Of a DNA stretch of 59,380 bases, positions 1,896-54,171 are shown in pieces. The stretch is from a virus (lineage: Duplodnaviria; Caudoviricetes), in IMG/VR virus record IMGVR_UViG_3300049982_000026, positions 1-59,380 of that record, one strand, 5' to 3'. Positions within the stretch are counted from its first letter, which is position 1. Every line of letters starts with the position of its first letter. A program made the translations under genes and the position numbers. A model generated the notes under the pieces. The model was not told where the DNA came from. It saw only the letters and a list, made by a program, of their open reading frames with translations, and made no database searches.

Positions 1896-2357
1896 GTGAA
1901 TTTCATCCACCATGAGCAGAAGCTCGGAATGGGGACGTTCCGCAAGGGGCTGACGACCTCCCCGTTCCAGATCCCCTTCCTGGTCTACCTCTTCATCCAG
2001 GGCATCCTGATCGCGCTGGCCGGACCGCAGTACGCCGCCGATCTTGAAGTCCCGACCTGGTCCATCTACAACTTCGCCGCAGCCCTCATCGCTGGCGGCG
2101 CGATCTCGACCTTCTCCCGTTTCAACGGCAATGAGAGGCTCGAGGAGTTCGGCCTCTGGCTCGTCGTCCTGGCGGCTATGATTGCTGTGGGTATCGAGAC
2201 GTTCTCGAAGCAGTACGCAGGGCTCGGCGACGACATCGCCATCCTGCTCGGCTGCCTGCTGAGGATTCGGGTACTACGCAAGGGCCGCAAGGCACAGAAG
2301 GTGGCGGTGCAGATCGTCACGGACAACGACAATCACGATGGGGAGACGACGCCCTGA
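1896..2357 (+). CDS. Multi-pass membrane protein of the lysis cassette
   Basis: About four hydrophobic segments; GGGGAG RBS before GTG; lies upstream of the endolysin. Confidence 0.7.
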   Translation: MNFIHHEQKLGMGTFRKGLTTSPFQIPFLVYLFIQGILIALAGPQYAADLEVPTWSIYNFAAALIAGGAISTFSRFNGNERLEEFGLWLVVLAAMIAVGIETFSKQYAGLGDDIAILLGCLLRIRVLRKGRKAQKVAVQIVTDNDNHDGETTP

Positions 2358-2746
2358 TGGACGCTATCCAGTTTCTCCCTCAGGTGGCCGGCGGCGGGAC
2401 GCTCCTGGTCATCGGCTACGGCCTGAAGCTCCTGATCGACTTCCTCACCCAGCGCCAGTCCGGCAAGCTCGAGGCCAAGAAGATCGACATGGCCGAGGAC
2501 ACGCAGCAGGTCACGGACGCGGCCGCCGCGAACGCCATCCTGCTGGCCAGCCTCCAGGCCGTGCAGGCGGATAATGTGCGCAAGGACTCCAAGATCGAGC
2601 ACCTTGAGACCCGCAACGCTGAGAAGGACACCAAGATCGAGGGTCTACAGAAGCAGGTCCGCGAGCTCCGCGCCCAGGTCCACATCCTGCTGCAGCGTCT
2701 GGACGGCGTCGACTTCGAGCTCGACGATCTCCGCGACAACCACTGA
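2357..2746 (+). CDS. Membrane-anchored coiled-coil protein (lysis cassette, holin-accessory type)
   Basis: N-terminal TM helix then heptad-like coiled coil; TGATG coupling. Confidence 0.7.
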   Translation: MDAIQFLPQVAGGGTLLVIGYGLKLLIDFLTQRQSGKLEAKKIDMAEDTQQVTDAAAANAILLASLQAVQADNVRKDSKIEHLETRNAEKDTKIEGLQKQVRELRAQVHILLQRLDGVDFELDDLRDNH

Positions 2747-2798
2747 GCTCCCCGCGTAGCCTGGACTGGTATCAAGTCCGCCTATTCTGAGGAGACTC

Positions 2799-3815
2799 AT
2801 GGCCGCACCGATGACCGCAGCGCAGACGCGCGCTGCGATGAAGAAGTGGCTGGTGCCGTTCAAGGAGTACTCCGGCTGGACCTCGCGTAAGCGTCCTGGC
2901 TCGTTTGCCCCCGTCGGTCTGGTGATCCACCACACCGGCTCGGACAGCGGCCAGAACAGCCCCAACTACGATCACTTCCTGTTCGTAGAGGGTCGTCCGG
3001 CCGAGGGTATCCCCGGCCCGCTCTGCCAGGCGACGTGCGAGATGGACGGGGATCTCATCCTCGGTGCCATCGGCCGCGCCAACCACGCCGGATCGGGCTC
3101 GTCCCGGTCGCTGGCCACCGTACGCGCCGACAAGGCCTCGCTCACCGCGCAGGTCAAGCCCGGACCCGACGACACCAACGGCAACGGATGGTTCTACGGG
3201 CTCGAGGTCAAGTTCGACGGCGGGCAGCCTATGACCGCCAAGCAGTACGACAGCGCGGTCCGCTGGGCCGCCGCGATCTGTGACTTCTACGGCTGGGGCG
3301 CTGGCTCTATCCTGGGTCACAAGGAATGGTCGAGCCGCAAGCCCGACCCGGGAAGCACGGCGATGAACAAGTTCCGCGCCGACGTCGCTGCCCGACTCAA
3401 GGCTGGCCCGGGGGGAACCCCGACCGGCGACACCGGAAAACCGCCCATCGAAGGAGATTTCACCGTGGCTGAAGCAGACCGCGTCATCGCCCAACTCAAC
3501 AACGTGTCCGGCCACCTGGCCGACAACAACCGGCAGTGGGCCAACACCGTCCTGGCCGAGGTGGCCAAGCTCTCCAGCCACCTCGACGAGCGCGTCACCT
3601 ACCTGGAGAAGCGCGTCCAGGACTACGCCGCGTTCGGGGCCAAGCACACCGACCAGGTCGAGGCCACCACGGCCGGCGACGTGGACTCCGCGCTGGCGGA
3701 CAACTTCACCGAGCTCGCGGGTGCGGTCACCGCCGTGGTCGAGATGCAGAAGCAGCAGGGTGCAGCCCTGGATGGCATCCTGGCCAAGCTGGCGGAGCTC
3801 GCCCCAAAAGCCTGA
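2799..3815 (+). CDS. Endolysin: N-acetylmuramoyl-L-alanine amidase (Amidase_2-like) with a helical C-terminal domain
   Basis: VIHHTG, ANHAG, GLEV and GHKEW...KPDPG motifs; GAGGAG RBS. Confidence 0.92.
   Translation: MAAPMTAAQTRAAMKKWLVPFKEYSGWTSRKRPGSFAPVGLVIHHTGSDSGQNSPNYDHFLFVEGRPAEGIPGPLCQATCEMDGDLILGAIGRANHAGSGSSRSLATVRADKASLTAQVKPGPDDTNGNGWFYGLEVKFDGGQPMTAKQYDSAVRWAAAICDFYGWGAGSILGHKEWSSRKPDPGSTAMNKFRADVAARLKAGPGGTPTGDTGKPPIEGDFTVAEADRVIAQLNNVSGHLADNNRQWANTVLAEVAKLSSHLDERVTYLEKRVQDYAAFGAKHTDQVEATTAGDVDSALADNFTELAGAVTAVVEMQKQQGAALDGILAKLAELAPKA
3451..3467 (+). promoter_or_regulatory. Internal in-frame translation start inside the endolysin (AAGGAG, 8 nt, GTG 3465)
   Basis: Strong SD with canonical spacing, encoded by atypical codons GAA GGA GAT, directly after a Pro/Gly linker. 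Confidence 0.7.
3803..3809 (+). other. Putative -1 ribosomal frameshift site C CCA AAA at the end of the endolysin
   Basis: X XXY YYZ heptamer in the correct phase just before the last sense codon and stop; the -1 frame opens into the transglycosylase domain. Confidence 0.7.
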
Positions 3816-4324
3816 CGGCTGACGAGATCCTGACGGAGGCCGGGTTTACGGACCCGGCCGTCCGCCGGATCGCGAAGGCCATCGGCAAGGCTGAGTCGGA
3901 TGGGTTCACCGACGCGGTCGGCGACATCCCCGGCGCTCGCATGGGCCCGTACATCAGCCTGGAAGCAGCTCGGGCGGACTACGCGTCCCGACAGGCGGCC
4001 AAGCTGCAGGTTCCGGTGCCGGTGCAGTACGAGCAGCGCTCGGACGGCTGGTACGCCGTGAACACCAAGTGGGGCACCTCGCGTGGCTGGTTCCAGGTCC
4101 GAATCCTGCGCGACCCGACGTCGGGCAATGCGGCCGACCGCTGGCGCGTGGGTGACAAGCTCGGCGACCCGCTCTACAACGCTCAGGCCGCCTTCGCGAT
4201 CTCCAAGGGCGGCACGGACTTCAGCTTCTGGTCGGTCTTCACGCACGACACGTACAAGAAGTTCCTCGACGTCGACTACCAGCTCAAGACCGGTCACGCG
4301 CGCGCGGACGACTGGGACATCTGA
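3803..4324 (+). CDS. Lysozyme-like lytic transglycosylase (SLT) domain, probably translated as a frameshift extension of the endolysin
   Basis: AIGKAES catalytic Glu, GWFQVR, DPLYNAQAAFAIS and WSVF motifs; no ATG/GTG at the start of the domain. Confidence 0.8.
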   Translation, partial: PKSLTADEILTEAGFTDPAVRRIAKAIGKAESDGFTDAVGDIPGARMGPYISLEAARADYASRQAAKLQVPVPVQYEQRSDGWYAVNTKWGTSRGWFQVRILRDPTSGNAADRWRVGDKLGDPLYNAQAAFAISKGGTDFSFWSVFTHDTYKKFLDVDYQLKTGHARADDWDI

Positions 4325-4337
4325 GAGGATATACAGC

Positions 4338-4721
4338 ATGAAGATCTTCGGTTACGAGCCCGCCGCCTGGGCGGGCGCTCTCCAGGGCGTTCTCGGCGTC
4401 CTGGTCGTTCTCAACGTGTTCGGCATCGACGCCGACAAGTCGACGCTGCTGCAGGCGGGTTCCGCTGCGGTCTTCGCGCTCGTCACCGCCTACCTGACGA
4501 AGAAGGTCAACCTGGCCGTCGTCGTCGGCGCCGTCCAGGCCGTACTGGCCATCCTGGTGGGCTTCGGTCTGCATCTGGACGCGGACGTGCAGGCTGCCCT
4601 GATCGCCGCGCTCCAGCTCGGGCTGGCCGGCTTCCTCCGCCAGAACACCGAGCCCGCTGTGGATCCCGGCTTCAACTCGGAGCCCCTCTACACGGAGCCG
4701 CTGGAGGCCGACGTTCACTGA
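4338..4721 (+). CDS. Holin-like membrane protein
   Basis: About four TM segments (MKIFGYEPAAW...); follows the endolysin; GAGGA RBS. Confidence 0.75.
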   Translation: MKIFGYEPAAWAGALQGVLGVLVVLNVFGIDADKSTLLQAGSAAVFALVTAYLTKKVNLAVVVGAVQAVLAILVGFGLHLDADVQAALIAALQLGLAGFLRQNTEPAVDPGFNSEPLYTEPLEADVH

Positions 4722-4760
4722 GCCAGTCCTGAGGCTCTGTACGGCTTTCTAAGCGATCGG

Positions 4761-4796
4761 ACCCCCGGCCCCTCACCAGAGGGTGTCCGGGGGTCT
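4761..4796. terminator. Hairpin at the convergence of the two genome arms
   Basis: ACCCCCGG...CCGGGGGT inverted repeat between convergent genes. Confidence 0.65.
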
Positions 4797-4801
4797 CTTC
4801 G

Positions 4802-5710
4802 TCAGTCCTGCCCCTGCTGGCGTTCGCGCTGGCCTTGAATCTTGGCTTCCCTCTCCCGCGCCAGCTCCAGCCGCTTCTCCCAGACCTTCGGGTCGAGTTT
4901 GTCGGGCACGGCGTGAAAGATGTCGAACACGACAGTTCCCTCGGGGAAGCGCCAGAAGTCTCCGTCGCTGTAGTGGCGCTCGTGGGCGCGGCGGGCCCGG
5001 CTCTCGATGGACTCCTCAGCCATCCGCCGCATCGTCTCCACAGTGCCGCCAGAGCCGCCATTAGGGACGATAGTGCGGCTCCTGCCGGCCATTACCGAGC
5101 CTGAGGCGGTCGCGACGTCGGTGTGCAGCGCCCGGCCCTGCTTGTAGGCGCGCGCGGGCGGGTCCTCGAGGTAGAGCACGATGCGGCGAGCCATGTCGAT
5201 GCTCTTGATGTTGCCCAGGATGTCGTGGTTGCACGAGCGCTGGCCAGAGCACAGCAGCCCCCGCACCTCGCCGGTCTCGTGGTCGTGGTCGACCGCCAGG
5301 CGCCGCTGCTTCGGCTCCTTCCGGCAGATGTAGCACCGACCGCCCTGATAGCGGTACAGCTCCAGGTAGAAGTCGTACGAGATCCCGTACGTCTCGCGAA
5401 CGTGGGCGCCGTACCGAGCCTCGCTCTGACAGGCCTTGCAGCGACTCCCCTCGGCGTACCAGAGCGGAACGAAGAACTGGCAGCCCGAACAGAACCGGCG
5501 ACCCTTGGGCCAGTTGGCTCCGGCGACGAGGGGCCGCCAGACGTAGCCCTCCCGCGCCTCCATGATCTTCAGCCGGGCGCGCGCCTCCAGCACCTGGTCA
5601 TCGATCAGCAGGCGGGCGATGCGGTGCCAGTAGCAGAAGTGGCTCGGCGCGTCCTTGGGCAGCTCGCAGTCGGGCTGTTTACACGGCTTCGGCGGCTTCT
5701 TGACTGCCAC
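4802..5710 (-). CDS. Endonuclease VII-like Holliday junction resolvase with extra Zn-binding segments
   Basis: YQGGRCYIC...LAVDHDHETGEVRGLLC...CN motif. Confidence 0.88.
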   Translation of the reverse strand: MAVKKPPKPCKQPDCELPKDAPSHFCYWHRIARLLIDDQVLEARARLKIMEAREGYVWRPLVAGANWPKGRRFCSGCQFFVPLWYAEGSRCKACQSEARYGAHVRETYGISYDFYLELYRYQGGRCYICRKEPKQRRLAVDHDHETGEVRGLLCSGQRSCNHDILGNIKSIDMARRIVLYLEDPPARAYKQGRALHTDVATASGSVMAGRSRTIVPNGGSGGTVETMRRMAEESIESRARRAHERHYSDGDFWRFPEGTVVFDIFHAVPDKLDPKVWEKRLELAREREAKIQGQRERQQGQD

Positions 5711-31306: not shown

Positions 31307-31634
31307 GTGACACCTGTGACATGTGACGCCCCCTCAACAAGTCGCTCAGTATGAAATCTGGAGAGCCAGGGGAGACAGGGAATCTAGATCTCTCATGTAT
31401 TAAGTAGAAAAGGGTGTCACAGGTGTCACAAGGGGGTAAAAAGGGCCTCTGACCTGGGGTTTTAGGTGTGACAGGGGGGGTGTCACAGGGGTGTCACATC
31501 AAGGGAGGGGGTGTCACACTTGCCTCCACAAAGAGTCACCCCCCGTAACCTAGAGTTAATGGTTACGGGGGGTGTGTGTGACAGCTACGGACAGCTATGC
31601 CCGGTTGTGACACCGCCGATGGCCAGCCGTCACA
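31307..31634. repeat. Iteron-like (GT)GTCACA/TGTGAC(AC) repeats, putative replication origin
   Basis: About 13 copies in both orientations around AT-rich patches, abutting the 3' end of the primase-helicase. Confidence 0.75.
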
Positions 31635-34074
31635 GCTCGATGTCCCACTTCTGGTCCTCGGTGACGTCGACCCGGTACTCCGGAGAGAGCACGATGCCCT
31701 TCCATCCCCGGACCTGCCGACCGCCGACGCGGCCACGGTCCTTCTTCACCTTGACGTTGTCGCGCAGCTTGAGCACGATGTCGTCGACCGGCGGCCGAGA
31801 GCTGTAGCCGTTCCGCTGGCACCAGATTTCGAAGGCCTTGGCGATGTGCTCCGTCGCGGTGAAGTCCTTCATGTCGCCGGTGACGGTCGCTGCCTCCTCC
31901 CAGAACTCGCTGGTGAAGTCGGTCGCCTTCTCGAACTCGTCCTGATCGGCCTCGATGATCGAGTAGTCGCCGCGCGCGAGCAGATCGGCCAGGAACGAGA
32001 CGGCCTTGGCGATGATGCCCTCGGCCTCCTGCAGCAGGACCTTGTGGTACTGGTCCACGATCTTCGTCTCGACGCCCAGCGCCTCCATGAACCGCAGGAT
32101 GGCGAAGCGGCGCGTCCAGGCCGATGTACGGTCGCTCGAGCGCGGGATCTGGTTGGCCGAGAAGAGGTGGTTGCAGAACGGCCGGAAGCTGAACTCCGGC
32201 TTGTTCTTCTGCTGCGCCTGGATCGCCTCGCTGGCGACGACCCGCTTGAAGATGGCCGTCTCGGCGATCTTGGTGGGGTCGATGTCCGTCACGATGTTCG
32301 CCTGCTTGCCGAGCAGGGAGTGCGTGGCGAAGACCGTCTTCGTCATGTCCTGCGGGGAGAGCGCGGCGCAGTTGCCGTCGCCGACGAGCCCCTGAACCGT
32401 CTCGAGGAACGTCGACTTGCCGGACTTGCCGACGCCGTACAGCAGGCCGGCGCGCTGGATCGGGTTGCCGGAGTACAGCGTGGTGGCGATGAGCTCCCAG
32501 GCGAGCTGGATGCCGTCACCGCTGAGCCGCTGGTCCAGCCACTCGTCGAACTTCGGGCAGGTAGCCTCGGAGTTCCAGTTGTGCGGGAGCTGCACGGTCG
32601 ACTTGTACTCCGGACCATGCTCGGCGAGCTCGCCCGTCCGCCAGTTGAGCATCCCGTTGCGGAAGTTGATGTAGCTCGGGTGCGGCTCGACCCGGATCTC
32701 GTCGACCATCGTCGACATCACGTCCTCCACCTGGACCACGTCGGCCCGCTTGTAGTTGTCGAGGAACGAGGCCGCCATCGAGAGCCGAACGATCGAGTCG
32801 TTCAGGATCCAGGCGCCCTCCTTGTAGATCCACCAGTTCTGCCCGGTCGACAGCGGCTGCTTGCCGATGGGCCACGACTTCGTGATCCGCTGGGCGGTGG
32901 TGGCCGGGAGCAGCTCCTTCTCCTTCTGCTTGCCGTCCTCGTCCACCTGGATCCGGCGGCACCCCTTGACGTCGAAGACGATGTGGCCCTGGACGCCACC
33001 GACGAGCTTGGCCTCCGAGGTCACCTCCTCCTCGTCAGCGGTACCGCCGTCGGCTTTTGGGGACGGGCTCCGGTCCTCGACGCCGTCGAACAGGTCGACC
33101 TCGTCTTCGATCGGATAGTGCGCCGGGGATGCCGAGCTGAGCGCTCGGACGAACTTGCCTAGGCCGTCGGCCAGCGTGAACGAGCTGTCGTTCGGGAGGT
33201 TCTGCCGCAGCAGGCCGACGACGTCATCCTTGCCGAGCGGGTTCCAGTCGGCGTTGACGATCTGCGCGAGCCGGTAGGTACGGCGCAGCACGCCAGCCTC
33301 CCAGCCCTCCTGCTCGCCACGGAACTCTTCGCGGTAGCCCTCCGGCCAGCGCTTCATCGCGTCGAGCTCGGCCATGGTCCCGCCGACAGCCTTGTCCAGC
33401 CACTGGTCGATCTTGCGCTTGGTCGTCTCGTCGGCCGCCTCGTACGCCGCCGCGTTGGCGGTCCGCTCGACCGTCTCGGCGTCGTACTCCTTCGGCTTGG
33501 AGGCCTCCACCAGCGCCTCGGCCAGCTTGGCGGGCAGCGGAGTGAACTCGGCCGGTGACGAACGGTCGTACGAGTAGTCGCCGTCGCCAGGAGCGCCCGG
33601 CTTGACGTTGCTCGGGTGCAGCTTATTGCCCGGACCGAGCGCGTAACCGCCGACACCACGGATGTCGACGCCGACGAAGCCGCCGAAGTTCTGCTTGTTC
33701 CGGATCTCGTCACCCTCCGGCGCACTGAACCACAGCGAGCGACCGCCGGACCCGGTCAGCACCGTGAAGGTGGCCGGGAGGTCGTACTCCGCGAGGAACG
33801 CGTCGACCTGGTGGTTGGGCACGTAGTCGTCGAGGTCGATGCCGACCAGGCCGGACGCACCCATCGCGACGCCGTAGTTGCTGGTGATCTCCGAGGCGTC
33901 GGCGACAGCATCGAGCACGCCGCGAGTCTCAGCCGTCGGGATCTTGGACCCCCGGGAGATCGGGAAGACGTGGACACCCTTGCGGACGAGAGCGGCGGCC
34001 CACTTCGGGCCCTGGTGCTCGACCTTCGGAGCGACAGGGAGACCCCGCTCCTCCATGAACGACTTGTCGGTCAC
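31630..34074 (-). CDS. Bifunctional primase-polymerase fused to a D5-like SF3 helicase
   Basis: VFPI...SKIP...NYGVAMG...GIDLD...TGSGGR...DIRGVGGYALGPG; NFRNGMLN; Walker A GVGKSGKST; FSANQIP. Confidence 0.92.
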   Translation of the reverse strand: MTDKSFMEERGLPVAPKVEHQGPKWAAALVRKGVHVFPISRGSKIPTAETRGVLDAVADASEITSNYGVAMGASGLVGIDLDDYVPNHQVDAFLAEYDLPATFTVLTGSGGRSLWFSAPEGDEIRNKQNFGGFVGVDIRGVGGYALGPGNKLHPSNVKPGAPGDGDYSYDRSSPAEFTPLPAKLAEALVEASKPKEYDAETVERTANAAAYEAADETTKRKIDQWLDKAVGGTMAELDAMKRWPEGYREEFRGEQEGWEAGVLRRTYRLAQIVNADWNPLGKDDVVGLLRQNLPNDSSFTLADGLGKFVRALSSASPAHYPIEDEVDLFDGVEDRSPSPKADGGTADEEEVTSEAKLVGGVQGHIVFDVKGCRRIQVDEDGKQKEKELLPATTAQRITKSWPIGKQPLSTGQNWWIYKEGAWILNDSIVRLSMAASFLDNYKRADVVQVEDVMSTMVDEIRVEPHPSYINFRNGMLNWRTGELAEHGPEYKSTVQLPHNWNSEATCPKFDEWLDQRLSGDGIQLAWELIATTLYSGNPIQRAGLLYGVGKSGKSTFLETVQGLVGDGNCAALSPQDMTKTVFATHSLLGKQANIVTDIDPTKIAETAIFKRVVASEAIQAQQKNKPEFSFRPFCNHLFSANQIPRSSDRTSAWTRRFAILRFMEALGVETKIVDQYHKVLLQEAEGIIAKAVSFLADLLARGDYSIIEADQDEFEKATDFTSEFWEEAATVTGDMKDFTATEHIAKAFEIWCQRNGYSSRPPVDDIVLKLRDNVKVKKDRGRVGGRQVRGWKGIVLSPEYRVDVTEDQKWDIEL

Positions 34075-48814: not shown

Positions 48815-49132
48815 ATGACCGACAACGTGACCCAGCTCAACCAGAAGGTCAACTCCAACCTCGACGAGATGGAGCGCGACTCCAAGCCGCCCTTCGCTGC
48901 CGTGGTGGCCGGCCAGCGGTTCACCATGATGGACCCGGCCGACATCGACTTCAAGGATCTGATGGAGATCCAGCACCCGGCGAACTTCCTGAAGTACGCC
49001 CTCGACGAGGACGGCAAGAAGATCCTCGCCGAGAACAAGGTCGAGGGGTGGCGTTTCAACAACCTCATCCGCGACTACATGCAGTACTACGACCTCGACC
49101 CCAAGGCTGCGGGAAAAGGCTGGCTTTCCTAG
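48815..49132 (+). CDS. Tail assembly chaperone (G)
   Basis: Lies before the tape measure gene; ends with slippery G GGA AAA at 49111-49117. Confidence 0.88.
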   Translation: MTDNVTQLNQKVNSNLDEMERDSKPPFAAVVAGQRFTMMDPADIDFKDLMEIQHPANFLKYALDEDGKKILAENKVEGWRFNNLIRDYMQYYDLDPKAAGKGWLS

Positions 49133-49578
49133 TCGGCCGGTACCGGGCTGAGCTCGAGTACGATTTCGCCGCCAAGCTGCCGGGAGTCAACTTCCGGGAG
49201 CTGTGGCGGCGTCGTCGTTGGAGGGTGATGCTCGAACTGATCGACCGCCTGCCGCGCGACACGTACTACTGGCAGGTCATCACGCAGGATCCTGAGCACG
49301 CCGAGATGCTCGTCGAGGCGCAGGAGCGAGCGGAGCGTGAGGGGAAGAAGATGTCGGCAGCCCCGCCGATGAGCACCTGGTCGGCCGAGGTCGAGGGCCT
49401 GGCCGCCGTCGGGGACAAGCTGTCGGTCATCGCGCACATTCTCAAGGTGGTCAACGGCGACAAGCAGTCACAGCCGCCGAAGCCAGCGCTGCGGCCCGAG
49501 ACGGCAATGCCTAGCATCAAGCGCAAGCACCGTCAAGAGCAGCACGACAAGCTGGCTGCTAGACTTCTCGGTAGATAG
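49111..49578 (+). CDS. Tail assembly chaperone GT extension (-1 frameshift)
   Basis: GGGAAAA in phase; -1 frame open to 49578. Confidence 0.85.
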   Translation, partial: GKRLAFLVGRYRAELEYDFAAKLPGVNFRELWRRRRWRVMLELIDRLPRDTYYWQVITQDPEHAEMLVEAQERAEREGKKMSAAPPMSTWSAEVEGLAAVGDKLSVIAHILKVVNGDKQSQPPKPALRPETAMPSIKRKHRQEQHDKLAARLLGR

Positions 49579-49605: not shown

Positions 49606-52600
49606 ATGCCGGAAGGCGGCGGGTACTCAGCGGGTTCGATTTTCCTCCAGGTGGTGCCCTCCTTCTCCGGATTCGAGAAGGAGGCCCGCCGGGTCGCCAA
49701 GGGCATGGAGGGCATCTTCGAGGACAGCCTTGACCAGGCTGGACAGCGCGGCGCCGACAAGGCCAAGCGCCACTTCGACCAGGCGATGGGCGACACCAAG
49801 AAGAGCGGGAAGAAGGGCGGCGAGGAGGCCGGGGACGAGTTCTCCGGAGCCTTCGAGCGCATCCTGCAGAAGCGGCTCGGCAAGGCGATCGATGCGCTGG
49901 GTAAGTCCGGCGGCGACCAGCTCAACAACATCGAGTCCCGACTGAAGAGCCTCAAGGGCGCGAAGGTCGGCATCGACCTGGACGCCGGGACCATGCTGGC
50001 CGAGCTTAAGGCCATCGACTCTGAGGTCGACAAGGCCACCCGCGACCGCACGCTCTCCGTGGACGCCCGCATCAACGCCAAGGCGATGCTTGCCGAGCTC
50101 CGCGAGATCAACCGCGAGATCAAGGGTGTCGACGGCAAGAAGATCAACGTCAAGGTCGACTACGACGACCGGGGTGCGGTCAGCAAGCTGAACGCCTTCA
50201 ACCGGATGATCGGCCGCAGCGGCAACCAGGCGGAGGACACCGCCAACAGCTTCCGTACGTTCAACGGCGTACTGCTGACGTCCGTCACGATCGGCCCGGC
50301 CCTGATCCCGATCCTGGCTGCCATCGCTGGTGGGCTCCTCGCGCTCGGCCCGGCCGCCGTCGCGGCTGGTGCTGGCCTGGGCGCGCTCGCCATCGGCTTC
50401 TCTGGAATCGGCAACGTCCTCCAGGCCCTGGACGCCGTCCAGAAGCGCTCGGCCAAGGACACGGAGTCCAACGCCAAGAAGATCCGCAACGCCTCGCAGA
50501 GCGTAGCTGACGCCCAGCAGCGCCTCTCTCGCGCCCAGCGCGATGCCAAGCAGTCGCAGATCGACGCCGCGCGCCGTGTGGCCGACGCTGAGTCCAGCGC
50601 AGCCGATTCCATCCAGGCCTCCCTCGCCCGCCAGGAGGACGCTGAGAAGAGCCTGGCCGACGCGCAGAAGGATGCGACCAAGGCTCAGAACGACCTGATC
50701 GACGCACGCCGTCAGGCACAGCAGGATCTCGACGACATCGCGGACCGCCAGAAGAAGAACTCGCTCGACGAGCGCCAGGCGGTCATCGACCTGTTCAACG
50801 CCACGGTGGAGTACAACGCCGTGCAGCAGGACGCTGGTTCGACCAACCTGGAGCGCGAGCAGTCCTCGATCAACCTCGAGAACGCGCGGCTGCGCCTGTC
50901 CGACATCCGCAAGGAGGAGAAGGACCTCACCGCCGAGCGGAAGAAGGGGATCTCTGGATCCGACAAGGTCAAGACCGCTGAGCAGGGCGTGGCTGACGCG
51001 CTCGAGCGCCAGAAGGAGGCGCAGAAGAACGTACAGCAGGCCGCCGCCGACGTCGACAAGGCGCGCAAGGACGGCGCCCAGCAGGTTACCGACGCACTGG
51101 AGCAGCAGAAGCGCGCCGGGGTGGACGCGGCTGAGTCAATCGCTGACGCGCAGAAGGCTCTCGTCCGGTCGCAGCAGGACTACCGCGACGCCCTCTTCGA
51201 GACCAGCACGGTCGGATCGGCCGCCGCGCAGAACCTGGCCGACGCCCTCTCCAAGCTCGGTCCCGCCGGCCGCGAGTTCGCCTACTTCATCTACGGCCTC
51301 AAGGACGAGTTCTACGCGATCCGCGACGCCGTGCAGGCTGGCCTGTTCCCCGGCCTCCAGGAAGCCATCGGGATCCTGGTCAAGACGTACCTGCCGGGCT
51401 TCACCCGCTTCATGGGCACGCTGGGCAAGGTGTTCGGCGACATCGCCGTCCTGACGGCGCAGACGCTCACCAACAAGACCTGGAAGCAGTTCTTCGCGGT
51501 CTTCGAGTCCGTGTCGCCCAAGCTGATCGCCAACTACTCGCAGGCCTTCCTGAACCTGGCCACCGCCATCGCGCAGATCATGGTCGTGGTCGCGCCGTTC
51601 GCGGTCGAGTTCTCCCAGGCCTTCGCCGATGTGACCGCGCAGTTCCTCAAGTTCACCCAGTCGAAGGAGGGGCAGAAGCTCCTCACCGACTTCCTGAACC
51701 AGGTCAAGCGCCTCGGCCCGTCGGTCATGAAGTTCTTCGAGGCCCTGGTCCCGGCGTTCCTGGCGCTGGTCGAGGCCCTCCTGCCGCTCGGCGAGCTGCT
51801 GCTGCAGGGTCTGACCTCGTTCCTGGAGTGGATCGCAGCGATGGACCCGAAGGTCCTCCAGGGCATCGTTTACACGATCCTCACGCTCATCGCCGCCTTC
51901 CAGATCGCGGCCGGTGTGATCGCCGGTGTCGCGGCCATCTTCACGCCGTTCGGCGCCACCATCGGTGTCGTCGTGGTCGCGATCGTGGCCCTGATCGGTG
52001 TTCTGGTCTACCTCTACACCACGAGCGAGACCGCCCGGAACATCATCAACGGCGTGATCGGCGCAATCGGCGCGGCGGTGAAGTGGTACTGGGACAACAT
52101 CCTGATCCCGTACTGGACGCTGCTCTGGCAGATCATCAAGTTCACCGCCGACGTGCTGAAGGACGCCTGGGAGAAGGTCATCTGGCCGGTCCTGCAGGCG
52201 CTGGGCGCTGCCGGTGCGTGGCTCTGGGACAAGGTCCTGAAGCCCGTTTTCACGGCCATCGGCAAGATCGTGGTCGACGTCTTCAACAACATCAAGTGGG
52301 TCTGGGAGAACATCCTCTGGCCGGTCATCAAGGTCATCGCACAGATCGTCTGGGAGCTGTGGGAGCTCGCCTTCAAGGTCGCGTTCAAGGCGATCGGCAA
52401 GGGCTTCGAGCTGCTCGGCTCCGGGATCAAGTGGACCTGGGACAAGGTCATCAAGCCGCTGTTCGACCTGTTCATGAAGGTCATCGGCGACGACCTGGTG
52501 AAGGCCTTCCAGACCGGAATGACGCTGATCGGCCAGGCCTGGGACAAGCTGAAGGAGCTGGCCAAGGCTCCGATCAAGTTCGTCCTGGACACCGTGTTCA

Positions 52601-54171
52601 ACCACGGCCTCATCGACGGGTTCAACTGGCTCGCCGACAAGCTGGGCATGGACAAGATCGCCTACATCCCGATCCCGAAGGGCTTCGCCGACGGCGGCAT
52701 CAACTCGCCGTACGGCGTCCGGCCGGGCTACACTCCGGGCCGCGACACGCACACCATCGCGGTCAGCGGCGGCGAGGCGATCCTGCGGCCGGAGCTCACC
52801 CGCGCGCTCGGTTCCGACTGGGTCTACGCGGCGAACGCTCGGGCGAAGCGGGGCGGCGTCAACGGAGCCCGCAACTTCCTCCAGGGCTTCAAGGACGGCG
52901 GCGTCTTCTGGCCGACCCCGGGCCGCTCCGTCGGTACGCCGTTCGGCAAGAAGGGTCCGATGTGGAGCTCCGGCTACCACACCGGCACCGACTTCCCGGC
53001 GCCGGTGGGTACTCCGATCCACGCCGTCATGGATGGCCGGGTCTCCAGCACCGCGTGGTCGAGCTGGGGCGGCAACCTCACCCGGATCATCACCAAGGGT
53101 CTCGGTGAGTGGTTCTACGCGCACCAGTCGCGCCAGGACGTCAAGACGGGCGACAACGTCAAGGGCAACCAGATCATCGGCCTGGTCGGCGCCACCGGTA
53201 ACGTCACCGGCCCGCACCTCCACCTCGAGCTCCGCGTCGGTGGCACGCCGGTCGACCCGATGCGCACCCTCACCGGTGGCATGACGGGCGTCGGCGAGCC
53301 GACCGAGGACCCGGGCAAGGGCCAGTCCCGCCTGGAGAAGATCCTCGGCGGCCTAGGCAAGGCGGCCAGCGCCGTGCGTGACGCCGTCACCTCGCCGCTG
53401 AACTGGATCAAGGGCAAGCTCGAGGGTCCGCTGGGCCAACTGAAGGAGAAGTTCGGCGACAGCTTCTTCGTGCAGCAGCTCACCAAGCTCCCGCCGAAGT
53501 TCTACGACGCCGTGGTCAACAAGATCAAGAGCATCGTCGGCGGCGGCGACGACAACGGTCCGGGCAGCACGATGCCGGTCGGCGACATCCAGCGCATGGT
53601 CGCAGACCTGGCCAAGTCGAAGTACGGCTGGGCCGGGTCGCAGTGGGACGCGCTGAACTGGCTGGTCGCCCACGAGTCGAGCTGGAACCCGAACGCGCAG
53701 AACCCGACGTCGAGCGCTTACGGCCTCTTCCAGTTCCTCGACGGGACCTGGGCTCCGTACGGCAAGAAGACGTCGGACCCGAAGCTGCAGGCGCAGTACG
53801 GCCTGGAGTACATCAAGGGTCGCTACGGCAGCCCGGAGAAGGCGAAGGCCTTCTGGGAGGGTCACCACTGGTACGCTGACGGTGGCATCGTCCCGGGCGG
53901 ACAGCCGGTCGGCAACGTCGGCGGCGCCCTGCCGGATAACGGTACGATGATGTACGACAACGGTGGGTACCTGCCCCCGGGCCTGACCACTGTGGTCAAC
54001 CTGACGGGCAAGCCTGAGCCGGTCTTCACGTCCCAGCAGTTCGAGGGCATGCAGAACGGGGCGGGTGGCGGGATCCACTACGAGCCGCACTTCAACGCTT
54101 CTGACCTCACTGCTGACGACGTCATGGACGACTTCCGCTTCGAGGTCCGCCGACTGGGAAGGGGTAGCTGA
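49606..54171 (+). CDS. Tape measure protein with M23 peptidase and lytic transglycosylase domains
   Basis: 1521 aa, helical with Trp-spaced repeats; HTGTDF...YAHQS...TGPHLHLE; HESSWNPNAQNPTSSAYGLFQFL. Confidence 0.95.
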   Translation: MPEGGGYSAGSIFLQVVPSFSGFEKEARRVAKGMEGIFEDSLDQAGQRGADKAKRHFDQAMGDTKKSGKKGGEEAGDEFSGAFERILQKRLGKAIDALGKSGGDQLNNIESRLKSLKGAKVGIDLDAGTMLAELKAIDSEVDKATRDRTLSVDARINAKAMLAELREINREIKGVDGKKINVKVDYDDRGAVSKLNAFNRMIGRSGNQAEDTANSFRTFNGVLLTSVTIGPALIPILAAIAGGLLALGPAAVAAGAGLGALAIGFSGIGNVLQALDAVQKRSAKDTESNAKKIRNASQSVADAQQRLSRAQRDAKQSQIDAARRVADAESSAADSIQASLARQEDAEKSLADAQKDATKAQNDLIDARRQAQQDLDDIADRQKKNSLDERQAVIDLFNATVEYNAVQQDAGSTNLEREQSSINLENARLRLSDIRKEEKDLTAERKKGISGSDKVKTAEQGVADALERQKEAQKNVQQAAADVDKARKDGAQQVTDALEQQKRAGVDAAESIADAQKALVRSQQDYRDALFETSTVGSAAAQNLADALSKLGPAGREFAYFIYGLKDEFYAIRDAVQAGLFPGLQEAIGILVKTYLPGFTRFMGTLGKVFGDIAVLTAQTLTNKTWKQFFAVFESVSPKLIANYSQAFLNLATAIAQIMVVVAPFAVEFSQAFADVTAQFLKFTQSKEGQKLLTDFLNQVKRLGPSVMKFFEALVPAFLALVEALLPLGELLLQGLTSFLEWIAAMDPKVLQGIVYTILTLIAAFQIAAGVIAGVAAIFTPFGATIGVVVVAIVALIGVLVYLYTTSETARNIINGVIGAIGAAVKWYWDNILIPYWTLLWQIIKFTADVLKDAWEKVIWPVLQALGAAGAWLWDKVLKPVFTAIGKIVVDVFNNIKWVWENILWPVIKVIAQIVWELWELAFKVAFKAIGKGFELLGSGIKWTWDKVIKPLFDLFMKVIGDDLVKAFQTGMTLIGQAWDKLKELAKAPIKFVLDTVFNHGLIDGFNWLADKLGMDKIAYIPIPKGFADGGINSPYGVRPGYTPGRDTHTIAVSGGEAILRPELTRALGSDWVYAANARAKRGGVNGARNFLQGFKDGGVFWPTPGRSVGTPFGKKGPMWSSGYHTGTDFPAPVGTPIHAVMDGRVSSTAWSSWGGNLTRIITKGLGEWFYAHQSRQDVKTGDNVKGNQIIGLVGATGNVTGPHLHLELRVGGTPVDPMRTLTGGMTGVGEPTEDPGKGQSRLEKILGGLGKAASAVRDAVTSPLNWIKGKLEGPLGQLKEKFGDSFFVQQLTKLPPKFYDAVVNKIKSIVGGGDDNGPGSTMPVGDIQRMVADLAKSKYGWAGSQWDALNWLVAHESSWNPNAQNPTSSAYGLFQFLDGTWAPYGKKTSDPKLQAQYGLEYIKGRYGSPEKAKAFWEGHHWYADGGIVPGGQPVGNVGGALPDNGTMMYDNGGYLPPGLTTVVNLTGKPEPVFTSQQFEGMQNGAGGGIHYEPHFNASDLTADDVMDDFRFEVRRLGRGS

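Follow-up and report, generated by a model that had tools for sequence, protein, structure and literature searches.

A candidate -1 frameshift and internal start in the endolysin gene of a high-GC actinophage

How many proteins does a phage make from its endolysin gene when a second catalytic domain lies directly behind that gene in the -1 frame, with no canonical start codon at the junction? This question is raised by positions 2799-4324 of IMG/VR virus record IMGVR_UViG_3300049982_000026, a complete virus record of 59,380 bp with 66% G+C, which is referred to as the window. The gene is that of a high-GC actinophage from soil, the large terminase of the window sharing 40-43% identity with terminases of Microbacterium, Streptomyces and further actinophages (1,662 matching records, almost all with actinobacterial hosts). 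The sequence elements described below, their conservation and the reuse of the junction sequence at tail-chaperone frameshift sites make it likely that this endolysin gene is decoded in more than one way, by a frameshift at its 3' end and by a start inside the gene; the slipping, the internal initiation, the ratios of the products and their assembly are predicted from these elements.

Standard translation of 2799-3815 would yield a protein of 338 aa composed of an amidase domain, a linker and a helical C-terminal domain (CTD). At the heptamer C CCA AAA (3803-3809), the tRNAs in the P and A sites would slip back by one base, aided by a 6-nt spacer that contains the 0-frame stop and by a stem-loop at 3810-3886. 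A minority of ribosomes would then read AGC CTG ACG and onwards, adding an SLT_3 domain of 171 aa and giving an enzyme of 508 aa with two activities. The Shine-Dalgarno sequence (SD) AAGGAG and the GTG at 3465 probably start the CTD alone (116 aa), and the same internal start followed by the frameshift would give a CTD-SLT protein of 286 aa. An earlier reading made from the letters of the window without database searches (the sequence-only reading) had proposed products of 338, 116, 508 and 286 aa and a junction peptide (...ELAPK-SLTADEILTEAGFTDPAVR), all of which are arithmetically right.

The slip site and the -1-frame domain

The junction is made up of the following features.

2789..2794, + strand: Shine-Dalgarno sequence GAGGAG, read from the sequence, 4 nt before the endolysin ATG
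2799..3815, + strand: 0-frame endolysin open reading frame (ORF) of 338 aa (amidase, linker, helical CTD), TGA at 3813-3815; PHROG phrog_880 endolysin, E 3.4e-40
3803..3809, + strand: slippery heptamer C CCA AAA, in phase with ORF 2799-3815
3809..4324, + strand: -1-frame coding part after the slip, 171 aa, SLT_3 lysozyme-like, stop at 4322-4324

In the 0 frame the gene ends with CCA (3804-3806), AAA (3807-3809), GCC and TGA (3813-3815). The codons of the in-phase heptamer are rare in this phage, as the sequence-only reading had noted: CCA makes up 8% of the Pro codons and AAA 4% of the Lys codons (26 of 718) in the 69 high-GC3 ORFs of the window (16,491 codons), which are the basis of the codon usage given here. 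The string CCCAAAA is not rare by itself, occurring twice in the window versus 1.55 copies expected; its place and its conservation are what goes beyond chance. The heptamer at 3803..3809 is one of only five in-frame X XXY YYZ heptamers (Y being A or T) in the 69 ORFs. Heptamers of the type XXXAAAA occur in frame only three times in these ORFs, two of them at the ends of the endolysin ORF and of the tail assembly chaperone ORF. The other copy of CCCAAAA (33055-33061, - strand) is in phase within an ORF of 814 aa (31630-34074, - strand), 476 codons from its end. A literature search on CCCAAAA gave no relevant match.

Protein-pattern scans of viral, metagenome and genome contigs for relatives of the SLT domain gave 25 loci, with one weak partial match from the genome contigs. 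After removal of same-contig duplicates, of the 5'-truncated L014 and L021, and of the weak partial L025 and L026, there are 17 distinct relatives with a visible junction. The slip heptamer is present in 11 of these 17, as in-phase CCCAAAA in ten and as CCCAAAT in L008. Upstream of the heptamer there are no fewer than five C-terminal regions unrelated to one another, together with two types of amidase, and in every case PKA, PKV or PNP precedes the stop. A heptamer that is invariant behind unrelated sequences, and that is written in rare codons, is not what would be expected of a plain C-terminal tail. In L008 the 0-frame end is PNP with a TAG stop, the heptamer is still slippery, no start-like codon overlaps the stop, and the -1 frame retains its Ser-Leu by other codons (TCC CTA versus AGC CTG).

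Read from 3803, the -1 frame has 173 codons (PKSLTADEIL...) and matches SLT_3 (PF18896) with 53.5 bits versus a cut-off of 27. The profile match covers positions 36-88 only, and an insert of about 40 residues splits the domain. The AlphaFold model, made with an alignment of 21 relatives, has a pLDDT of 93.3 and shows helices from residue 6, about 5 residues past the heptamer, and the catalytic-type Glu (AES/GES motif, residue ~30) is conserved in every relative that covers this part. It is clear that a complete SLT domain is encoded here, as had been proposed from the letters alone. The accompanying claim that the domain has no start of its own did not hold in full, given that the -1 frame has a GTG at 3536 (ORF 3536..4324) and that relatives carry GTG or ATG at the overlap with the stop. 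A start at GTG 3536 was rejected, because the 89 residues that it would add are an Arg/Gly/Pro-rich off-frame sequence and because this frame is closed by stops in relatives. The first ATG of the -1 frame (3941) lies inside the fold, 3' of the conserved Glu, which a start there would delete; the database product P0002 (127 aa) begins at this ATG and does not have the conserved Glu. The -1 frame opens just 3-87 nt 5' of the heptamer in L002, L010, L016, L019, L020 and L008, and since in L002 and L019 it opens one codon before CCC, entry from upstream is impossible in these two.

When the SLT model was compared by fold with the PDB, no significant neighbour emerged (best E 0.36); a sequence-profile search against PDB sequences gave no match, nor did tblastn of the domain against 50,697 phage records. 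A library of 1.8 billion proteins contains single-ORF, in-frame fusions of Amidase_2, a helical region and SLT_3 (P0053, 474 aa; P0049, 434 aa). Among these in-frame fusions, P0047, P0062 and P0064 have other N-terminal domains. The existence of in-frame fusions indicates that a fused bifunctional enzyme is a natural, selected architecture.

Such fusions in distant relatives, together with the error-prone nature of homopolymer runs, would also fit an artefact or a decaying gene, in which one amidase-CTD-SLT gene has been broken in two by a recent frameshift mutation or by an assembly error of 1 nt in the C4A4 run. This explanation is extremely improbable and was rejected, given that the same -1 arrangement with the same letters is found in 10 other distinct assemblies from different samples, and that the SLT reading frame is uninterrupted and its protein sequence conserved. 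The window is matched letter for letter by its likely source contig, and two other runs have contigs that either span the junction or pick up again at precisely 3803, no indel being listed at that place (X2 record 11, X3 record 14). Transcriptional slippage was set aside on the ground that a run of four A is too short for it. The features of a tandem slip are found together at this junction, namely an in-phase heptamer, an open and conserved -1 frame with no canonical start, a structure on the 3' side, and a slip site kept beyond coding need. A programmed -1 frameshift at C CCA AAA, as put forward in the sequence-only reading, is quite probable on this basis, with strong comparative support from the 11 of 17 relatives and from the reuse of the site in chaperone genes.

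The stem-loop and the 16-nt cassette

Two overlapping features describe the sequence around and after the heptamer.

3803..3818, + strand: 16-nt cassette CCCAAAAGCCTGACGG, composed of the heptamer, the 6-nt spacer with the 0-frame stop, and the first stem bases
3810..3886, + strand: extended 77-nt stem-loop, putative frameshift stimulator, z -5.74

The stem-loop has a minimum free energy of -50.5 kcal/mol versus -31.4 +/- 3.3 for shuffled sequences, none of 200 shuffles being as stable. The hairpin arms seen by the sequence-only reading (3838-3845 and 3852-3859) are present, but they do not form a hairpin that stands 28 nt off the slip site; they are the apex of stem-loop 3810-3886, the base of which follows directly after the heptamer. 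Four close relatives have z values of -6.4 (L002), -7.18 (L003), -5.05 (L010) and -5.97 (L015), and the value is weaker in L017 (-2.0). In L018, which has ATG at the overlap, the cassette carries three changes in its 3' part and the structure is lost (z -0.13).

Among the cassette loci the stem usually starts 6-7 nt past the heptamer, with GCCUGA(C) as the spacer and (C)GG as the first pairs. No shared structure emerged when all 12 heptamer-bearing junctions were folded to a consensus, and because distant junctions fold differently the count of pairs was restricted to six close sequences, from an alignment set that excludes L004-7, L022-24 and duplicates. Over these six sequences and 30 pairs, 87% of the cells pair, 18 pairs are invariant and two have a double change. 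One double change is clean: four sequences have GC and two have CG, the changes being synonymous in Ala and Pro codons. Synonymous differences amount to 0.158 in the first 27 codons versus 0.313 in the rest. A direct repeat, CCTGACGG, is located in the 5' arm of the stem (3811-3818 and 3829-3836, 18 nt apart), its second copy encoding Leu-Thr-Glu of helix 1.

The exact cassette CCCAAAAGCCTGACGG occurs in 36 viral contigs of IMG/VR versus 7 for a control with the letters reversed. Twenty of the 36 copies stand at the end of an ORF of 112-230 aa that has a -1 extension of 66-101 aa, and these fall into six sequence families. When one member of each family was scanned against PHROG (L029 and L042 for the first family), only the first matched, to phrog_1749 (tail assembly chaperone) and phrog_337. 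The long downstream ORFs that were tested are tape measure proteins in six of six cases (L030, L031, L037, L040, L044 and L056), which identifies the 20 sites as classic G/GT sites. In the cultured Microbacterium phages Wyvern and OscarSo, CCCAAAAGCCTGACCG and CCCAAAAGCTTGATCGG are found at the short-form end of chaperone coding sequences annotated as joined (frameshifted). The window has a chaperone pair of its own at 48815-49578, just 5' of the tape measure gene (49606-54171). Its G part spans 48815-49132, with the heptamer G GGA AAA (49111-49117) six codons before the stop, and the -1 frame continues to 49578. The letters after this heptamer (GGCTGG) resemble those of the endolysin cassette (GCCTGA).

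Endolysin junctions account for six of the 36 copies: two are SLT contigs already known, three lead to a GH19 domain, and one leads from a Peptidase_M15_4 domain to a domain of 151 aa without a Pfam match. The remaining copies are one after a portal gene, two that represent one unknown pair, and seven that are chance-like, which equals the control count. Among GH19 relatives found by protein and not by pattern, the heptamer is present in four of four. In cultured phages, a search for the GH19 module gave only two weak matches, and a search for the chaperone of L044 gave none.

The endolysins of L033, L045, L048, L073 and L075 reach a GH19 (chitinase class I-like) domain through the same heptamer or cassette, and that of L039 is joined at the cassette to the 151-aa domain. 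The N-terminal parts at these junctions are Amidase_2, a PGRP-like amidase or Peptidase_M15_4, the N-terminal domain of L048 having no Pfam match, and each of the six loci has an SD and start at the linker boundary. In L062 (4902-7609), a portal gene (Phage_portal, E 2.5e-53) ends in the 16-mer and is followed by a -1 ORF of 512 aa with a weak PI3_PI4_kinase-like match; the pair could represent a further frameshift fusion or a mere overlap. In L035 (4868-6660) and L049, a protein of 437 aa of unassigned function, neither chaperone nor endolysin, ends in the cassette and has a -1 ORF of 164 aa behind it. A scan with GGGAAAAGCCTGACGG gave 26 loci, 12 of which are one further chaperone-like family, showing that the 3' part of the cassette is also found after a different X triplet. 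In five viral contigs of low GC content (0.43-0.48; L079, L081, L087, L088 and L099), GGGAAAAGCCTGACGG lies within one conserved short family with no long ORFs around it, and this family may be a non-coding element.

It can be tentatively proposed that CCCAAAA-GCC-UGA-CGG and its stem form a portable recoding cassette that appends optional C-terminal modules to unrelated high-GC phage proteins. Its cases might comprise at least six tail-chaperone families, endolysins with SLT_3, GH19 and other glycosidase modules, and possibly a portal protein. Equally tentative is the idea that the exact spacer, including the 0-frame UGA and the CUGACG that the IS1222 element has as well, is itself functional; it could act by contacting the ribosome, or it could serve in addition as a site of micro-homology at which modules are exchanged. 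With the same reserve, the cassette and the conserved internal start might together set the ratios of up to four products of the endolysin locus.

Evidence against the frameshift and the CTG at the stop

Several points weigh against the proposed decoding. The evidence for the frameshift and for the internal start is computational throughout. In the E. coli data of Sharma 2014 (PMC4066793), C_CC.A_AA.A is among the heptamers that shift at more than 0.1% without a stimulator, which is not proof of high efficiency. The same source gives 54% for C_CC.A_AA.G with a pseudoknot in E. coli (PMC4066793), and an argument made for Thermus holds that, where an organism has two Lys tRNAs, the Lys codon prone to shifting is AAA rather than AAG (PMC5009743); by analogy, this may extend to actinobacteria. 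The distant relatives L019 (z -1.15), L020 (+0.65) and L008 (-0.99) bear the heptamer and have local hairpins only, with no significant 81-nt fold. Covariation in the stem is weak, its score being reached by 27 of 500 shuffles of the six sequences and 30 pairs, and two other stretches of codons are equally low in synonymous differences (e.g., 0.09 in codons 92-104). The scan with the 16-mer covered exact copies only and therefore gives no measure of the variation in the 3' part.

In 3700-3960 there is a single Rfam match, to RF00383, IS1222_FSE of the IS3 family, at 3782-3892 over the full model length. Its score of 20.9 bits (E 0.038) is far under the gathering score of 45, so that the window is not a member of this family; the shared layout counts in favour of the frameshift, as a likeness of design only. 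Both have an A-rich slip site, a 6-nt spacer that contains the UGA of the upstream ORF, and a stem starting with CG (AAAG-UAC-UGA-CG versus AAAA-GCC-UGA-CG in the window, the stem beginning at CG), while IS1222_FSE differs in its transposase context, its slip site and the sequence of its stem.

A further point is the -1-frame codon that overlaps the stop.

3812..3814, + strand: CTG overlapping the stop (CTGA), rival non-canonical start, read from the sequence

In the 11 heptamer carriers this codon is CTG in nine, ATG in L018 and CTA in L008. In the six relatives that do not have the heptamer, the overlap is GTGA in L005-7 and CTGA in L004, and there are separate canonical starts in L022/23 and L024. 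From this variety it follows that the SLT domain is expressed differently across the family. In L004 (2990-3090), where GAC CCT ACC TGA with the CTG overlap stands in place of the heptamer, a 13-bp hairpin begins at the stop.

These overlaps would be accounted for by two coupled genes, with SLT_3 starting alone at CTG 3812 by termination-reinitiation and no fusion protein being made. Nearly all relatives have an xTGA overlap, with the canonical G in L005-7 and L075 and the canonical A in L018. Also to be counted against the frameshift are the conservation of the CTGA overlap alongside the heptamer, the presence of the heptamer with GTGA in L075, of ATGA in L018 and of GTGA with no heptamer in L005-7, and the case of L004, which has CTGA and neither the heptamer nor a canonical start. 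Canonical starts at the overlap mean that initiation or re-initiation at this place is used in the family. Moreover, stand-alone SLT proteins are called in databases (P0025 starting MTP..., P0030 starting VSP...), and a stem that masks a start until the upstream ribosome opens it is the classic layout of translational coupling. What speaks against this explanation is the behaviour of the CTG itself, which is a poor initiator and is nonetheless retained in 9 of the 11 heptamer carriers, with no drift to ATG, GTG or TTG, while L008 has CTA. There is no SD at a usable distance, given that GGAG ends 14 nt before CTG 3812 and is absent in L003 and L010, whereas the genes of this phage otherwise have strong SDs. 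A start at CTG also leaves unexplained the invariance of the rare CCA-AAA preceded by C behind unrelated CTDs, as well as the presence of this 16-mer, with its CTG, at chaperone G/GT sites, for which no stand-alone T product would be expected. Two coupled genes are therefore an unlikely arrangement, and a start at CTG 3812 is a minority reading of the junction.

The two routes may also be combined, with low frameshifting giving the fusion and low re-initiation at CTG giving free SLT, the relatives being placed on a continuum from fused through frameshifted to split. All three states exist in the family (fusions in P0053 and P0049, the heptamer with CTG, and GTG or ATG starts), and L018 and L075 combine the heptamer with a canonical start. 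Nothing stands directly against this model, which is less parsimonious and is regarded as quite improbable. The frameshift at C CCA AAA, leading to a fused enzyme, is the preferred reading of the junction.

The internal start, known systems and the lysis cassette

The second proposed signal lies inside the endolysin ORF, between its domains.

2913..3353, + strand: Amidase_2 (N-acetylmuramoyl-L-alanine amidase), aa 39-185; Pfam PF01510, 53.9 bits versus a cut-off of 26
3405..3464, + strand: Pro/Gly-rich disordered linker, aa 203-222; pLDDT 31-46 in the AlphaFold model
3451..3456, + strand: internal Shine-Dalgarno sequence AAGGAG, spanning the rare codons GAA GGA
3465..3467, + strand: in-frame GTG, putative start of the CTD, residue 223, 8 nt after AAGGAG
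3465..3812, + strand: helical CTD, 116 aa, with two long helices predicted by AlphaFold at low confidence

The order of amidase, Pro/Gly linker, AAGGAG-N8-GTG (3451-3467) and helical domain of 116 aa given in the sequence-only reading was recovered, the amidase by its Pfam match and the helices by a model of low confidence. Residues H44, H45, H174 and D183 of Amidase_2, which we take to be the zinc ligands, are invariant in eight sequences. The helices of the CTD are predicted at 223-289 and 292-334 (AlphaFold, pLDDT 61.6, low confidence, from an alignment of only 8 sequences), and in Pfam no family exceeds its cut-off over the CTD.

The codon GTG 3465 is the first residue of the predicted CTD, and the SD in front of it is written in rare codons, GAA being 11% of the Glu codons and GGA 9% of the Gly codons. 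Given that a strong SD with an in-frame start deep inside an ORF occurs in about ten cases in the 69 ORFs of the window, a single internal site means little on its own, and it is position and conservation that carry weight. Sites were counted by a loose rule (GGAG, GAGG, AGGA or AAGG ending 4-10 nt before an in-frame ATG, GTG or TTG, the first 10 codons being skipped), under which GTG 3465 is the only site in the endolysin ORF of the window. The same rule gives 20 sites in 14 related endolysin ORFs (4,104 codons), i.e., about six besides the boundary sites. The linker/CTD boundary carries a site in all 14 of these ORFs, and in 8 of them it is the sole site. The residues that encode the SD vary among relatives (EGD, EGA, QGA, EED, EEE, KDED, QEDD), whereas both the purine motif and the start codon are retained. 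With this strong comparative support, the internal SD-GTG start is likely to be functional. Conservation in relatives, which had been named as a check of the whole proposal, is thus seen for both signals, the heptamer in 11 of 17 and the internal SD and start in 14 of 14.

It had also been proposed that the four products co-assemble through the helical CTD into a holoenzyme, and this is doubtful. A complex prediction with two copies of the CTD gave a score of 0.02 against a mark of 0.32, which counts neither for nor against association.

Programmed frameshifting in tailed phages is textbook knowledge for tail chaperones and for a small number of capsid and tail proteins, and the G/GT frameshift of lambda has reportedly been proven experimentally. 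Lambda-type G/GT genes are like the endolysin locus in having X XXA AAA a few codons before the 0-frame stop, a start-less -1 ORF and a GC-rich stem 6-7 nt to the 3' side; in addition, the 16-mer is identical at about 20 chaperone sites and near-identical at the annotated frameshift of Wyvern and OscarSo. They are unlike it in that the present gene encodes a lysis enzyme and the appended part is a catalytic domain of 171 aa. In Lactobacillus phage A2, -1 frameshifts in capsid and tail genes reportedly use the heptamer C CCA AAA followed by a stem-loop. These are also 3'-terminal -1 shifts that give a fraction of the protein a C-terminal extension, but the A2 cases concern structural proteins and a low-GC host.

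Endolysins with an internal in-frame start include CTP1L, CS74L, CD27L, Lys170, Ms6 LysA and that of phage 2638A (PMC4777826, PMC3111421). In CTP1L, for which the arrangement has been demonstrated by experiment, GTG comes after the SD AAGGGGG in the linker (GGAGG in relatives), and the full-length enzyme and the free domain associate as 2:2 heterotetramers (PMC4777826). The present gene is similar to the CTP1L/Lys170 type in that the linker contains an SD made of Glu/Lys-Gly codons and, after it, a GTG or ATG with which the C-terminal domain begins, and differs from it in that this domain is a predicted two-helix CTD of no known family and not a known wall-binding fold. None of the known internal-start endolysins adds a frameshift. 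Lysin A genes of actinophages are generally modular. Some of the relatives found here combine an amidase or peptidase with a glycosidase in one ORF (P0053, P0049, P0047, P0062 and P0064) and others have them split into neighbouring genes with a GTGA overlap (L005-7), whereas the window stands between these two arrangements, its second domain lacking a canonical start and its slip signal being conserved.

The PRFect paper (PMC10885494) lists lysins among unannotated predicted frameshifts in SEA-PHAGES genomes and cites Shearman 1994 (lactococcal) for a lysin 'known to contain a frameshift', the passages concerned giving no cassette, conservation analysis or named lysin. A full-text literature search found no described endolysin made by frameshifting, the nearest being this remark and its citation of Shearman 1994. 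In line with the statement of the sequence-only reading, the search also found no described endolysin that uses both mechanisms.

The tandem-slip -1 frameshift is a standard mechanism, and the internal start is a known device of endolysins. What appears to be new is the presence of both in one lysis gene, the use of frameshifting as a route to a second catalytic domain on an endolysin, and the recurrence of a single, nearly invariant 16-nt cassette in chaperones as well as in several types of endolysin. If this is true, one lysis gene would give a major enzyme with a single activity and a minor enzyme with two activities, in a ratio fixed by translation, and many metagenomic 'start-less' or 5'-truncated glycosidase ORFs beside amidases would be mis-annotated (cf. 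P0002). The family would offer a natural series of fused, frameshifted and split forms for asking why the dose of the second muralytic activity matters, and the 16-nt cassette would be a simple search key for new recoding sites, raising a mechanistic question about its conserved spacer. Since modular endolysins are used as antibacterial enzymes, the native set of products matters for expressing them.

The endolysin gene is part of a lysis cassette that ends with a holin gene.

4338..4721, + strand: holin gene; PHROG phrog_9752, E 2.5e-18, lysis-cassette context

The order of the cassette is two membrane/coiled-coil proteins (1815-2357 and 2357-2746), ORF 2799-3815, the -1-frame ORF to 4324, and the holin. 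A promoter and terminator scan of 2300-4900 gave no promoter-like site, and no signal on the + strand inside the locus. The sole match of the locus by blastn to cultured phages is a patch of 110 nt of the amidase in Streptomyces phages. In phage Yosif, a small ORF that is not a hydrolase comes after the endolysin. On the 5' side of the endolysin in the window, ORF 1162-1803 resembles a GDSL/SGNH hydrolase (31.3 bits, barely below the Pfam cut-off of 32.9), 1815-2357 encodes a multi-pass membrane protein, and 2357-2746 encodes a membrane anchor with a coiled coil and a weak Rz-like spanin match. These three ORFs in 1162-2746 may have further lysis or cell-envelope functions.

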